From: Octopus vulgaris
Lineage: Eukaryota
NCBI GenBank assembly: GCA_951406725.2
Contig: OX597822.1
Span: 35,402,001-35,466,000, forward strand
Direction of reading: 5' to 3'
Length of the DNA stretch: 64,000 nucleotides
Shown: positions 341 to 63,470 of the stretch, one piece after another
Layout of the letters: each line of letters starts with the position of its first letter
Position numbering within the stretch: the stretch's first letter is position 1
The notes under the pieces: model-generated
What the model saw: the letters and a program-made list of their open reading frames with translations, nothing else
The model's database searches: none
What the model was told of the DNA's origin: nothing
Made by a program: the position numbers and the translations under genes

Positions 341-527
341 ATATCCAGAATATCCATATCCATATGTGTGTGTGTGTGTGTATACACATATATATATATG
401 TATGTATATATTATATATAAATTATATAAATATATATGTATGAATGTATATATACAGCATACTATATATATATATATATATATATATATATATATATAAA
501 TGGAGTTAAACGCAGGTGTTATTCAAA

Positions 528-629
528 TTCTTCTACTTCCGACACTTGTTTCGAAGATACCACTGGTATTATTCCAAAGGAATAAAATGGTGTAAAACAA
601 TGTAAGCTTCTCTTCAGGGAAGTGAAGAA
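528..629 (-). ncRNA. Type I hammerhead ribozyme motif inside a (TA)n-flanked insert (~499-670)
   Basis: Minus strand reads ttcttcacttcc CTGAAGA gaag..cttc GAAA caagtg TC ggaagtagaagaa: intact core, stem I about 11-12 bp, stem II gaag/cttc with a long loop, minimal stem III. Confidence 0.8.
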
Positions 630-1873
630 ATGAAACACGTCAATAAGGCATTTTAACAGAAAATTATGGATATATATATATATATATATATATATATATA
701 TATATATATATATATAGCGATTAACTGAGCGCTATTAAGATTGTTTTCTACCTTTAAAAACAAGGAGTTGCAACCGTTTTACTTGTGCAATTTTTTGCTT
801 CCCTGGTAACTATTTATATATTTTTCCCTGTTAATTGTTAACAAGGGGAAAATACACACATCTATACATCTATTTTAAGATTATATATATATATATATAT
901 ATATATATACATACACACACATATATAATACTTTTATTATAGCTATAACATTAATATCAACGATGGTGCTTAACAAAGTTTTGCATTTTCTCTTTTTTAT
1001 AATTTTACATTGGTTTCAATACGTTCTATGTAATGCATGCTTCTTTATCTCAGGTAGTATTCTCTAAAGAATATAAAGTTTCATTCATAATACCACTATG
1101 CTTGATCAAGTCATTAACTTGCCTGTAACCTTCAGTAGCTAATCAATAGCTAATCAATCTGAATAACATATTTTTTATATCTTACACTATCGAAAACACT
1201 TCATCGGTTGACGATATAAGAGAATATAAGATTACATGAGTTGATTAGTTTAACATTTGATATCTTCTGCAGATTCCCATATTGTACTTTATAAATCCTG
1301 ATCTCTAATCATGTGGTATTTTATCTAACAAGCCAAATTCTATGCTACGTATTTTACTTCAATCGCTGTTGTTGTTATATCTCTCGTGAATTTATCGAAT
1401 CACATAGCAAGGCTTTATTTTCATAAATATATCCTATCCTTAGGCAGTTATAAAAAAAAAAGTTACGTTGTGTTCTCTCGGTCTGCTAGAGGAAACACCC
1501 AAATCCCACTCAAACTGAATGCAATATTCTTTATTTGCTTCTTTACTTTCCGAACCTACTGAGGGGCCCATGGAACCGAACTTTATTTAGACTTTCAAGG
1601 CATTTAGGCTAATATCCAGTTCATGGCTGTCTTAACTATCCCACCTAAGGGTGCTATTTTCCCCTGTGCATACTTGAACAACAAGGGAAAATGGCATGCT
1701 GTGTTCAAGGACAAAACACATCACCCGGTCCGAGAAACGAACCCACCATCTAGAGACTTTAAGTCCAACATCCTAGTCACTAGGCCACGCGCCTGCACAA
1801 GACACACACTACCAATTTTAAATGTGTAATGTGCTCTGCAGTCTACCATTCCCTGAACAAATATAATGAAATA

Positions 1874-2104
1874 TATTTCTTTACTACCCACAAGGGGCTA
1901 AACACAGAGGGGACAAACAAGGACAGACAAAGGGAATAAGTCGATTACATCGACCCCAGTGTGCAACTGGTACTTAATTTATCGACCCCGAAAGGATGAA
2001 AGGTAAAGTCGACCTCGGCGGAATTTGAACTTGGAACGTAACGACAGACGAAATACGGCTACGCATTTTGCCTGGCGTGCTAACGTTTCTGCCAGCTCGC
2101 CGCC
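1874..2104 (-). mobile_element. SINE family B (Meta-domain-like) with Tx1-like tail and TSD
   Basis: Head ggcggcgagctggcagaaacg, domain cctttcatcctttcggggtcgataaattaagtacc, tail tttgtcccctctgtgtttagccccttgtgggtagtaaagaaata; about 15-bp direct repeat aaatataatgaaata on both sides. Confidence 0.9.
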
Positions 2105-2824
2105 AAATATAATGAAATAGTTTATTCTTTGAGTGACTTTCGCACCGTTAGCGTTGACCTGCGGCTCAACATCAACGACGGCATTTCGTCTATCTTTACA
2201 TTCTGAGTTCAAATGCGTTTCATCCTTTTGAGATCGATTAAATAAGTAATCGACTAGCCTTCCCCCCACCTCAATGGGATGAATGTAATCGATTAGCCTC
2301 CTCGCCCAAATTTTCCGGCCTTATGCCTATAGTAGAAAGGACTATTACTGTTGTTAACAACAATAATGGTTTGCGAGTGAATTTGCTTTACAGAAACTAT
2401 GGGGAAACAAGTCGTGTTTATATATGTGAGTCAGTGTGTGTGTGTGTGTGTGGACTGAAGGTGGTGCCCCAGCATGGGCACAGTAAAATGACTGAAACAA
2501 GTAAAAGAGTAAAGAGTACTATTTTCAGAACTGTATGCAAATTATTTTCGGGTGTGTGACCTCATTGATATTTCAAAATTTATGATTTTAAAGTTAAGAA
2601 TTCTACTGAATATTGAATATTATTGAATTGTTTACCAAGAAAAATAAAATCAGACTCAATCTGTCGCCTGGTTCAATACCACCTCCGACCAACTTGGGTG
2701 TGTTTGAACCTTTGTCGCAGTGTTCCTTGTTGCAAGCATTCGGTGTCAGGTACGAGAATACCATTTTTACTCTTCATACCGCAATTCTTGGAGGCTCTGG
2801 AAGCAGCTGCAGACAATGCCTTCC

Positions 2825-3236
2825 ATTCTTTTATTCTTTTAGTTGTTTCAGTTTTTTGACTGCGGTCATGCTGGAGCACCACCTTTTAGTCGAACAAATC
2901 GACCCCAGGACTTATTCTTTATAAGCATCGTACTTATTCTATCGTTCTCTTTTGCTGAACCGCTAGGTTACGGGGACGTAAACACCAATATCGGTTGCCA
3001 AGCGATGGTGGTGGGGGGACAAACACAGATACACAAACATAAACACACACACACACACACACAAACATATACACGACAGGCTTCTTTCAGTTTCCATCTA
3101 CCAAATTCACTCACAAGGTTTTGGTCGGCCCGAGGCTATAGTAGAAGATACTTGCCCAAGGTGCCACGCAGTGGAAGTGAACCTGGAACAATGCAGTTGG
3201 GAAGCAAGCCTCTTACCACAATGCCACTCCTCCATC
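2825..3236 (-). mobile_element. SINE family A, near full length
   Basis: Reverse complement of the family A consensus from head to tail. Confidence 0.9.
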
Positions 3237-3659
3237 TAAACTAAAAGATAAAAAATAGTTCTCAGGTAAAAATGTGCTTTTGTTTGTGTGTGTGTGTGTG
3301 TGTGTGTGTGTGTGTGTGTGTGTGTGTGTGTGTGTGTGTGTGTGTGTGTGTAACGAAAATATAGGACAGGGAGACGGCTAAGAATCATACGGAAACAACA
3401 CGTAAACGCACATACAATCAACGCAGACATGCTTCAGCCATGTCGATGAAATATCATCACAATTTCGACACCTTCCGTCAATGTTGTTCGATTTGGCGTA
3501 ACAACCATAGACAAACATAAACAGGAAAATACGATCTTGTGTGTTTGTGTATGTGTTTGTTTACTAACAACGTTTTCATTCTGGGCTACTTTTTAAGATG
3601 ATCCGTTGTTTTTGTTTCTTTTTATGAAATTAATCCGGAAAATCTGTTCCAACTTTGTA

Positions 3660-61132: not shown

Positions 61133-61430
61133 GCTCAACTCCGATCGGCTGTTAATTTTCAGATAGAGGTGGTGGATCGATAGAATTTCTTTTATATGTA
61201 GATTATCAGTGTCCCTCTCTGAAGCCAGTATGGAGGCGTTTATTTCCTTGGTGGTGCTGTCGCATCTGGTCATGTGTTTGCGATACTCCTTAATTCAGAC
61301 GTGGGTTGGTCGTGCTGTGCTACCGATGTAGTAGTTGGTGCATTTGAACCACAGAAATAGTGCATTTGAATCATACTATGCACTACGTAGGCACATGTTA
61401 GTGTCGCGAACGAGGCAGTTCGTTAGTGTA
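61133..61430 (-). pseudogene. Penelope-like GIY-YIG endonuclease remnant
   Basis: FKCTNYYIGSTARPTHV*IKEYRKHMTRC...ILASERDTDNLHIKEILSIHHLYLKINSRSEL. Confidence 0.75.
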
Positions 61431-62182
61431 CAAGGCTGTCGTACTGCACGTGACCACCTTTTTGATAGGTGTTAACATAGGAATGGGTCTGAATTGGCCA
61501 ATAGAATGTCGAGTCCTTTCCAGCGGATAGCCCTGTAAATAGAGGAGATGGTCTTCTCATTGACTTCCATGTTTTGAGTTGAGTATCTTTATCAGGCTGT
61601 TTCATTTTCCAACCTTTACACACACAAACACACAAACACACACACAGAGTTCAATATAAGGAGTTATTTTGGAAAATGATGGAAATAAGTATAAAGGGAA
61701 ATAAGAGAATAAAAGTAAAAATAAAAATATATGTAGGATGTTATAGTTGCAGTTCCATTATTCAAGGAAAGTGGAGGGCAGAAGTGGTAGAAATGGTGCT
61801 TGTCCATGTATGAACATTCTGATAGTTCATATTTTGTCATTACAAATGAAAAGTGTGGAGACATAAATTCCATATTATATATATATATAAGTCGGCGTGC
61901 TAGGAGAGTCGTTAGCACGCTTGACAAAATGCTTAGCGAACGCATTGTGACCAGCGGTGTGTAACTACATCTGATGGACTGGTCGGTCACGTGATGATGA
62001 TGATGATGATGATATATATATATATATATATATATATATAGTGTAAAGAGTTAGCGGTTACAATAACAGACTAAGGGATAAAATATACGTATATAACCCC
62101 GGGCATTGGTGTGTAGGCACACTATACACGTAGAATGCAGATAGCAACAGGATAAACAAGAGTTTATCGGGAACAAATGCAA

Positions 62183-62384
62183 ATAATCAGAAAATGGAGA
62201 AAACCTCATCGATTGGACTGCATTTATAGTTTTTATTAATATAAAGTATGACATAACAAAATAGGTGACGTAACGTAATACGTCATCTATTTTGTTATAT
62301 CATTCTTTGTATTATAAAATAAGCTATAAATGTGGTCCAACCAATGTGTTTGTTAATCTGAGATTTTCTCTATTTTCTGATTAT
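62183..62384. repeat. Imperfect fold-back (about 95-bp arms) in a (TA)n-flanked insert
   Basis: ataatcagaaaatggagaaaa...ggtgacgta / tacgtcatc...ttttctctattttctgattat. Confidence 0.8.
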
Positions 62385-62456
62385 ATATGTGTGTGTGTGT
62401 GTGTGTGTGTGTGTGTGTGTGTGTGTGTGTGTGTGAGAGAGAGAGAGAGAGAGAGA

Positions 62457-63065
62457 GAGGTGCAATGGCCCAGTGGTTAGGGCAGCGGTCATAGGATCGC
62501 GGCTTCGATTCCCAGACCGGGCATTGTGAGTGTTTATTGAGCGAAAACACCTAAAGCTCCACGAGGCTCCAGCGGGAGGTCGTGGCGATCCCTGCTGTAC
62601 TCTATTGCCACAACTTTCTCTCACTCTTTCTTCTGTTGGCCTGCTCGCTTAGCCAGCGGGGTGGCATCATTTGAAGGCTAAAGCAATGCAAAGTGCATTG
62701 TGACCAGCGATGAATAACATCTGATAGCCTGGTCGGTCACGGTGATATATATATGTATGTGTGTGTGTGTGTGTGTGTGTGTGTGTGTGTGTGGAGGCGC
62801 AATGGCCCAGTGGTTAGGGCAGCGGACTCGCGGTCGGAGGATCGCGGCTTCGATTCCCAGACCGGGCGTTGTGTGTGTTTATTGAGCGAAAACACCTAAA
62901 AGCTCCAAGATGCTCCGGCAGGGGGGGGGGCGACCCCTGTTGTACTCTTTCGCCACAACTTCCTCTCCCTCTCTCTTCCTGTTTCTTGAGTAACGCTGGA
63001 GGGAACACAAACGCCACAGAAACCGGGAAACCGGGCCCATGAGACTGGCTAGGCTTGAAAAGTGG
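62457..63065 (+). mobile_element. Two family E tRNA-SINEs with different 3' parts
   Basis: Shared head caatggcccagtggttagggcagcgg...ttcgattccc; the tails diverge after ctctttc/ctcttcc. Confidence 0.85.
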
Positions 63066-63116
63066 GACGTTATATATATATATATATATATATATATATA
63101 TATATATATATATATA

Positions 63117-63470
63117 AAATATTAGGGAATAAATCCAAAAATACAGGGGAAAATCAGATTTAGGATTAAATCCAATTTTATAGTATAAATATATTATATT
63201 ATATTATATTAAATTAGAGATAAAACCACTATTAGGCAAATCAAACAATGAAAAACATAAGCCAATACATAAAATTAATTTAATTTATATTATTTTAAAT
63301 ATATATCAAAGGTATTAAAAGTTTAATAAAAGATAAAGAGTAAAAACTACGATCGTTTCATTACTAAACCACGCTAAGATAAGTATTTATATATATTTAA
63401 GATCTTCAAATATTGTATAAGTCTTTGGTGTAATAATATTTTCCTTATGTAAATATCGTTGTTTATGTAA
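63117..63470. mobile_element. Second copy of the 12670-13965 element, rearranged as an inverted junction
   Basis: 63117-63360 matches 12675-12920; 63365-63470 is the reverse complement of about 13812-13928. Confidence 0.85.

Follow-up and report, generated by a model that had tools for sequence, protein, structure and literature searches.

Hammerhead ribozymes in the pseudo-long terminal repeats (pLTRs) of Penelope-like elements (PLEs), insertion into (TA)n, inverted copies, a tail on one side only, and retrozymes derived from PLEs have all been published. Here, we describe 16 inserts at (TA)n tracts in a 64-kb stretch of the Octopus vulgaris genome (assembly GCA_951406725.2, contig OX597822.1, positions 35402001 to 35466000; "the window" hereinafter means this whole stretch), which fall into 14 repeat families, designated A to K, M, N, and O. 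We consider it very probable that eight of the inserts are the 5′-truncated ends of coding PLEs, that three are non-coding tandem units bearing hammerheads, and that all of them were, in likelihood, written by PLE reverse transcriptase (RT) from nicks in TA tracts. A preliminary description of the same DNA had proposed instead a family-rich set of non-autonomous ribozyme retroelements mobilised by PLEs into TA microsatellites, which standard annotation would miss.

With Hydra-1_Obim, as presented in the accessible part of Craig et al. (2021; PMC8557442), our families share an endonuclease of GIY-YIG type at the C terminus with CxxC and CxH motifs, DKT, and a CxCX5C linker (in B and N), together with a pLTR hammerhead, insertion into (TA)n, 5′ truncation, tandem and inverted copies, and a tail at one end; the supplementary alignment of that paper lists an octopus Hydra family with (TA)n insertion and a hammerhead. 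Families A, B, and N are nevertheless set apart from Hydra-1_Obim by eye, A being without the CxCX5C linker, and the tails observed here measure 65 to 150 nt, against 30 to 40 nt in Hydra-1_Obim, with 3′ untranslated regions (UTRs) of up to ~2.5 kb and a stem II span of 36 to 70 nt.

Neptune, Poseidon, and the element PAc, according to the available sections of Frangieh et al. (2024; PMC11167929), likewise have two fixed internal 3′ ends, which delimit the tail, and AT-rich targets. In vitro, PAc cuts and extends both strands at AT-rich DNA, is predicted to form a dimer, and does not need the hammerhead for insertion. The systems differ in that here the two start sites, mostly TA-like, are divided between the arms, one to each, in 47 of 48 pairs, whereas for PAc those sections report neither a strand difference nor target homology.

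Metazoan non-LTR retrozymes, as described in the parts open to us of Cervera and de la Pena (2020; PMC7229834) and of the preprint by Li, Clavereau and Pollet (2026; 10.64898/2026.07.22.740005), resemble the retrozyme-like families E, F, and K in their non-coding tandem units with one type I hammerhead each, their low GC content (34 to 41%), their palindromic stem III, a U-U mismatch at the stem II base (in F), and their proposed mobilisation by PLEs. The units of E, F, and K are 525 to 550 bp long, compared with reported circles of 170 to 400 nt (families of 51 to 972 bp in the preprint), and, unlike retrozymes, these families have a long stem II, mostly 1 to 2.3 units, and inverted arms in (TA)n. 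The preprint argues that retrozyme units derive from PLE pLTRs and reports cleavage in one of nine tested.

The minimal hammerheads of PLEs (Cervera and de la Pena 2014; PMC4209133, available portions) share with families C and I an extra base after position 9, a short stem I, a palindromic GAAACGU, and the absence of loop III; there, as here, the majority of motifs in the genome stand singly and derive from PLEs that are truncated. We found no description in those portions of the core variant CUGUAGA (A6 to U) that is family-wide in C (13 of 20 copies). Finally, the head-to-head Penelope of Adineta vaga (Arkhipova et al. 2013; PMC3846280) shares inverted pLTRs with a tail on one of them, and its pLTRs act in trans on unrelated sequence. 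For the tail on one of two inverted pLTRs, self-priming has been proposed as the cause (PMC3846280 and PMC8557442, in the parts available, the former favouring it), whereas the arm lengths reported below favour two independent priming events. In the literature on octopus Penelope elements, hammerheads, and retrozymes and on PLE twin priming, with Repbase and most subscription journals outside the search, we found no description of these families or of PLE twin priming, and the 14 families are probably new.

RESULTS

Inserts in the window and their repeat families

The search space was the 2.80-Gb genome (227 contigs); for each family, 40 candidates were scored and the best 12 to 30 loci, those closest to the window copy, were fetched. 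Direct comparison of these loci establishes family membership: the 16 inserts represent 14 families, all repeated in the genome, with 161 to 3077 first-look candidates per family, which are not copy numbers (A, 2243; B, 1861; C, 1837; D, 2914; E, 1151; F, 2134; G, 1605; H, 778; I, 3077; J, 1555; K, 2875; M, 161; N, 2829; O, 1261). The inserts are high-copy repeats with fixed 3′ ends that join (TA)n.

The association of diverse inserts with (TA)n thus stands as first described, with corrections. The inserts had been called mostly unrelated, but those at 12901 and 63345 belong to one family (B), as do those at 19870 and 52290 (C, the two copies being 75% identical), and K (at 5132) is an older relative of F (at 37745), 72% alike; I and C are 71% alike over 90 nt. 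Boundaries had also been partly misread: in the insert at 499, the right-hand TA tract (670 to 715, 46 nt) is an expanded internal ATATGTATA of family A, and the element continues to ~862. The features are as follows, in window coordinates, with clade labels given by motifs.

499 to 862: family A, Hydra-clade PLE 3′ end; arm 499 to 745 (short end, minus strand; internal TA expansion 670 to 715), head to head with arm 745 to 862 (long end, plus strand)
541 to 617, minus strand: family A hammerhead, type I and complete; stem I ACUUCC/GGAAGU, core CUGAAGA, stem II span of 58 nt, GAAAC-AAGU-GUC
4486 to 4639: family O, fold-back made of a Neptune-like PLE's 3′ tip; arms 4486 to 4525 (short) and 4525 to 4639 (long); no hammerhead in this copy
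4913 to 5175, minus strand: family K, part of a non-coding unit of ~526 bp that is related to F; hammerhead 5′ half cut off
12672 to 13986: family B, 3′ UTR end of a Hydra-clade PLE (~2.5-kb AT-rich UTR); long-end arm 12672 to 13928 (minus strand), short-end arm 13926 to 13986 (plus strand)
12993 to 12907: hammerhead core of this B copy, with a weak stem I
15455 to 15666, plus strand: family I, ~210-bp unit with a decayed minimal hammerhead; other copies have a long CA-rich 5′ extension
19777 to 19977, minus strand: family C, solo pLTR-like 3′ end, ~200 bp long, of a Neptune-like PLE; hammerhead 19901 to 19874, of the minimal kind, with CUGUAGA core at 19901 to 19895
22581 to 22814: family M fold-back, with the short arm on the left and the long arm on the right; neither a hammerhead nor a coding link found
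22840 to 23046: family N, fold-back made of a Hydra-clade PLE's 3′ tip (1.7 kb past the open reading frame [ORF]); arms 22840 to 23004 (long) and 22997 to 23046 (short)
24539 to 24844: family D fold-back; long arm 24539 to 24756, short arm 24747 to 24844; hammerhead 5′ half lost, no coding link found
24906 to 25680: family E, 549-bp non-coding tandem unit (retrozyme-like); long arm 24906 to 25409, short arm 25403 to 25680
25271 to 25217 (minus strand) and 25434 to 25488 (plus strand): family E hammerheads; core CCGAUGA in the window copy
37278 to 38250: family F, retrozyme-like, a non-coding unit of 525 bp in partial tandem with an additional inverted arm; hammerhead 37751 to 37814 with one core change
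38416 to 38809: family G, fold-back made of a Neptune-like PLE's 3′ end; arms 38416 to 38622 (short) and 38609 to 38809 (long)
42223 to 42463, minus strand: family J, old element (~80% to relatives); decayed hammerhead with long stem II, 3′ end overwritten by another repeat, no coding link found
52198 to 52400, minus strand: second, diverged C copy; decayed hammerhead
61130 to 61500, minus strand: old PLE C-terminal relic of a separate family; thumb and GIY-YIG motifs, no Pfam match
62040 to 62384: family H fold-back, long arm left, short arm right; the copy ends short of the hammerhead known from the family; no coding link found
63117 to 63470: second B copy; long-end arm 63117 to 63361 (minus strand), cut inside the hammerhead
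63357 to 63470: inverted piece joined to the second B copy, its source lying ~1 kb further upstream in the UTR

Families joined to coding Penelope-like elements

Six families (A, B, N, C, G, and O), which account for eight of the inserts, run 5′ into PLE endonuclease or RT coding sequence in the fetched loci. By their motifs, A, B, and N would belong to the Hydra clade and C, G, and O would be Neptune-like. The Hydra motifs comprise DKT (A only), CxxC before the E and CxH after the N of the endonuclease, and the CxCX5C linker of B and N.

Longer A copies continue into a GIY-YIG endonuclease frame, and a protein search returned 150 matches, four of which have 778-amino-acid frames. Among four A relatives fetched, three hold an uninterrupted frame of this length and one a 730-amino-acid stop-free stretch. 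Their arrangement is pLTR-ORF-pLTR, with the hammerhead-bearing direct repeat on both sides of the ORF in L195, L196, and L198, and the relatives with long ORFs are 82 to 85% identical to the window copy. For B, N, C, G, and O, the 3′ pLTR copy alone was seen. RT and endonuclease pieces lie in order within single loci in B, N, and O, and the endonuclease part alone was reached in C and G; the O protein matches Pfam RVT_1 (E value of 4e-7) and GIY-YIG (E value of 9e-4). Family B corresponds to the terminus of an AT-rich UTR, ~2.5 kb long, that follows a further RT and endonuclease of Hydra type, and N is comparable. The 5′ truncation, head-to-head inversion, and optional tail all occur in the coding PLE families. 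The link to PLEs, the preference for (TA)n, and the abundance of families, all proposed in the preliminary description, are borne out.

Its two PLE relics fared differently. The one at 61133 belongs to a family of 112 candidates, copies of which read as PLE thumb plus GIY-YIG, with no Pfam match; the RT relic at 7880 is single-copy in the genome, with no Pfam or tblastn match, and is unsupported.

Several neighbouring sequences were considered and set aside as parts of these elements. A ubiquitin-protease-like fragment upstream of one B copy, tried as the cargo of a giant element, is a separate ~420-bp repeat (L171:2720-3140, minus strand) with at least 11 other copies (L200 to L210), three of them on contig C31; we take it to resemble the His-box of a ubiquitin-specific protease. 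A match to F in the B locus L340, tried as a sign of common ancestry, is an opposite-strand neighbour, and the Hydra ORF beside an I copy (L338), tried as the coding link of I, lies on the other strand. The Hydra ORF of N (L429:1950-3520, minus strand) contains a long asparagine-rich stretch between RT and endonuclease; such a stretch is reported at the same place in rotifer Penelope elements (PMC3846280, available part).

Retrozyme-like families and families in which no coding link was found

Tandem non-coding structure was seen directly in families E, F, and K. The tandem period is 548 to 556 bp in 9/15 E loci (unit, ~549 bp) and 496 to 527 bp in 18/20 F loci (unit, ~525 bp), with one hammerhead per unit, arrays of up to ~2.3 units, and longest stop-free frames of 77 (E) and 57 (F) amino acids. 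In K, the tandem structure consists of short overlaps only, in L291 and L305. E locus L120 has two full hammerhead cores, one with GAAAU. Judged on their sequence, E, F, and K have the structure by which non-LTR retrozymes are defined in the accessible parts of PMC7229834 and the 2026 preprint; a further trait used to recognise retrozymes was found in F loci L100 and L104 and in E locus L120, and not in the window copies. These three families would likely owe their mobility to an autonomous partner acting in trans, with multimeric or circular RNA as the source. Among the data sets listed as containing family E, none is recorded as RNA; contigs of four runs, which we guess to be RNA, cover the family, and ends, circles, and strand are not visible in them. 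As separate observations, the short arms in F loci L091 to L110 start at unit positions 303 to 319 in 7/13 pairs, beside a small palindrome and not at the cleavage site, and one E array (L112/L120) starts at hammerhead stem III.

E, F, and K are thus the part of the preliminary description that holds as non-autonomous. Its broader form, in which all of the inserts are non-autonomous ribozyme retroelements (retrozymes or SINE-like, that is, short interspersed element-like, units) mobilised by PLEs, is very unlikely and, as a general statement, is refuted by the six families that are continuous with PLE coding sequence and show scattered 5′ truncation. Longer copies of D, H, I, and M, moreover, extend 5′ by 0.7 to 1.4 kb without an ORF or a tandem return, as do the long UTRs of B, N, and C. 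In favour of that form, apart from E, F, and K, copies of C and I tend to begin at a fixed 5′ position, ~200 nt before the end and with initiator-like sequence (14/19 C and 10/14 I copies, both query selected, and 3/10 incidental C copies), such that ~200-bp solo pLTRs could be re-copied as units. This fixed start may be the transcription start of the pLTR.

Hammerhead ribozymes

A descriptor for type I hammerheads, which tolerated a single core change and a long loop II and required at least 4 bp in stem I and at least 3 bp in stem II, gave five matches in the window, compared with five in 12 local shuffles combined: 617-541, 19901-19874, 37751-37814, 25271-25217, and 25434-25488, one of them intact and four near-intact. 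The last two lie inside the fold-back at 25024 and are additional to the ten sites listed in the preliminary description, of which three pass the descriptor (528, with an intact core, and 19870 and 37745, with one core change each, CUGUAGA and CUGAAUA). The other seven are remnants: the CUGANGA half is gone by truncation or inversion at 5132, 24665, and 63345; at 12901, both core halves are present with a stem I of 1 to 2 bp; and those at 15531, 42313, and 52290 are decayed. These remnants are genuine because their family relatives hold the full motif.

The canonical type I core (CUGANGA, GAAA, and UH) is present in the fetched loci of A (17/30), B (17/20), D (3/20), E (6/15), F (16/20), I (7/15), J (4/15), and N (12/15), the variant core CUGUAGA or CUGUGGA in 14/20 C loci, and core-like matches in 8/20 K loci; G has a degenerate motif only, and no hammerhead was found for family O. 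Changes in stem I are compensatory between F (ACUCUA/UAGAGU) and K (AUCAUA/UAUGAU) and likewise between old and young A. The folding energies of single motifs are unremarkable (z scores of −0.1 to −2.3), and aligning the motifs across families brought out nothing informative.

That standard annotation would miss the inserts holds for Rfam: its hammerhead model gave no matches at the gathering score in the window and six loci, and by E value, among the 150 of 217 Rfam matches listed, there were microsatellite-driven microRNA matches only. A motif-only genome search, blind to family and to TA, yielded 1754 matches versus 38 for the reversed control; one further large family with a compact canonical hammerhead (L308 to L337) is dominant in it. 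A 40-nt piece of this family lies in the window at 61650 to 61689.

Most window copies have what, from the letters, is a broken ribozyme. The hammerhead is likely dispensable for insertion and rides in the pLTR just upstream of the start sites.

Junctions with TA tracts

The window contains 62 (TA) tracts of at least 12 nt. Eight of the ten hammerhead sites first listed lie within 300 nt of (TA)5, which is weak evidence because 43% of window positions lie that near. Among the first 30 matches of the motif search, nearly all from the one further family, TA lies within 150 nt downstream in 15/30 and upstream in 3/30, versus 15.7% in the control (downstream, 13/28 after removal of two duplicated loci; p of ~1e-4).

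Stronger evidence comes from the junctions of the inserts themselves. (TA)4 occurs within 24 nt of the 3′ end in 120/168 central arms from nine families (seven duplicate loci dropped, nine window copies included), as opposed to 416/7056 background positions (5.9%), and the 3′ ends of N and O are at TA in 13/15 and 11/15 loci. At the other, unprimed end, 35/96 non-inverted copies abut TA, in a test that misclasses some inverted copies, as do 7/10 incidental C copies, versus a background of ~6%.

TA tracts could in principle be made by the elements, through slippage at TA-like starts, telomerase-like addition, or later expansion, and not be targeted by them. Most 3′ start sites do lie within TA-like sequence, TA is twice as common at 3′ ends as at 5′ ends, and in the window the internal ATATGTATA of A has expanded into a tract of 46 nt. 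We nonetheless consider such an origin unlikely, since TA at the unprimed 5′ ends speaks for insertion into tracts that were already there.

Near a 3′ end of B, F, K, G, and H, several of which are unrelated, stands a run of T with CCCT(T/A)A after it, a recurrence that may be due to chance.

Fold-backs and the pairing of two ends

All eight fold-backs of the preliminary description are true inverted arm pairs. Each of seven families tested has two fixed 3′ ends, 43 to 150 nt apart, which we refer to as long and short. The 58 head-to-head pairs, six of them window loci, comprise 47 long plus short, 1 short plus short, no long plus long, and 10 with one other end, so that 47 of the 48 classifiable pairs combine long with short. 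The rule is independent of which end the query selected (checked in E and A), and the partner arms of N have one end site in 6/6 other loci and those of O in 3/4.

How far the arms reach bears on whether one was copied from the other. Fold-backs might arise by self-priming of one cDNA or RNA hairpin, as proposed by Arkhipova et al. (2013), or belong to MITE-like DNA transposons (miniature inverted-repeat transposable elements) instead of reflecting twin priming. Some junctions are indeed near-perfect palindromes (the one at 22960 is at stem III), and 3 of 36 abutting pairs have equal reach. Tc1/mariner MITEs have TA flanks and inverted arms, a likeness that we count for the MITE reading. Against both, most family copies have a single arm, and against self-priming, reach differs by more than 15 nt in 33/36 pairs, with the long arm extending further in 22 and the short arm in 11. 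In these 11, the short arm has sequence that the long arm lacks and the long arm has the tail, so that neither copies the other; in the insert at 499, the arms have no overlap at all. Unequal, independent reach therefore means that one arm is not a hairpin copy of the other and favours twin priming; we regard self-priming or a MITE origin as quite unlikely. The junction of the N fold-back (22997 to 23004) coincides exactly with the hammerhead's palindromic stem III, which lies upstream of the cleavage site, and the template was therefore uncleaved at that point.

We infer that twin priming, with one site per strand, is the best mechanism. The PLE GIY-YIG endonuclease would nick both strands of a TA tract, and each nick would prime cDNA synthesis at one of two fixed internal start sites of the RNA, the 43 to 150 nt between them being the PLE "tail." Synthesis would usually stop early and, where both strands are extended, the two cDNAs would meet head to head, often with a few bases overlapping, and give a fold-back. 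We lean, if only slightly, toward a stronger version, in which one complex primes two nicked strands at two fixed RNA sites in at least nine unrelated PLE or retrozyme families, tail and inversion then being one event, a twin priming that is asymmetric and obligatory and that a dimeric enzyme carries out on coding RNAs and on tandem or circular hammerhead RNAs alike.

Other features of the window

Outside these inserts, positions 45949 to 47041 (minus strand) hold broken gag-like frames with a zinc knuckle (Pfam zf-CCHC, E value of 6e-4), probably ORF1 of a long interspersed element (LINE). A frameshifted stretch at 40040 to 40420 resembles a Tc1/mariner transposase relic by eye, with no Pfam match. 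Inverted pairs (93 to 96% complementary) of common SINE-like repeats at 33987 to 35317 and 63671 to 64000 are apparently outside the PLE system.

DISCUSSION

That the inserts are PLE-written, from nicks in TA tracts, has several points weighing against it. Six PLE 3′ regions, in a genome with many more PLE families, yielded no autonomous partner for E, F, and K by sense-strand match. Neither a coding link nor tandem structure was found for D, H, I, J, and M, with J and M searched once each. The sampling of loci favours copies that resemble the window copy. Neptune-like is a motif call made without a tree, and two Hydra proteins gave no RT or GIY-YIG match in Pfam and nothing useful in PDB, and therefore their assignment rests on motifs. 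The rate of TA at 5′ ends (36%) is half that at 3′ ends (71%), and the 3′ tract may in part lengthen during insertion or later. Finally, the in vitro work of Frangieh et al., in the sections available (PMC11167929), found start sites to be equal between strands and no homology between target and RNA start.

The analysis separates truncated PLE ends from true retrozyme-like units and reveals the extent to which PLE debris, unflagged by Rfam and Pfam, makes up the non-coding DNA of this genome. The long/short pairing, together with the independent arm lengths, bears on how inverted PLE insertions and the tail form. If asymmetric twin priming is true, the hammerhead variants with a long stem II and with the CUGUAGA core would have been kept by selection, and cephalopod genomes would hold thousands of dated records of the process.

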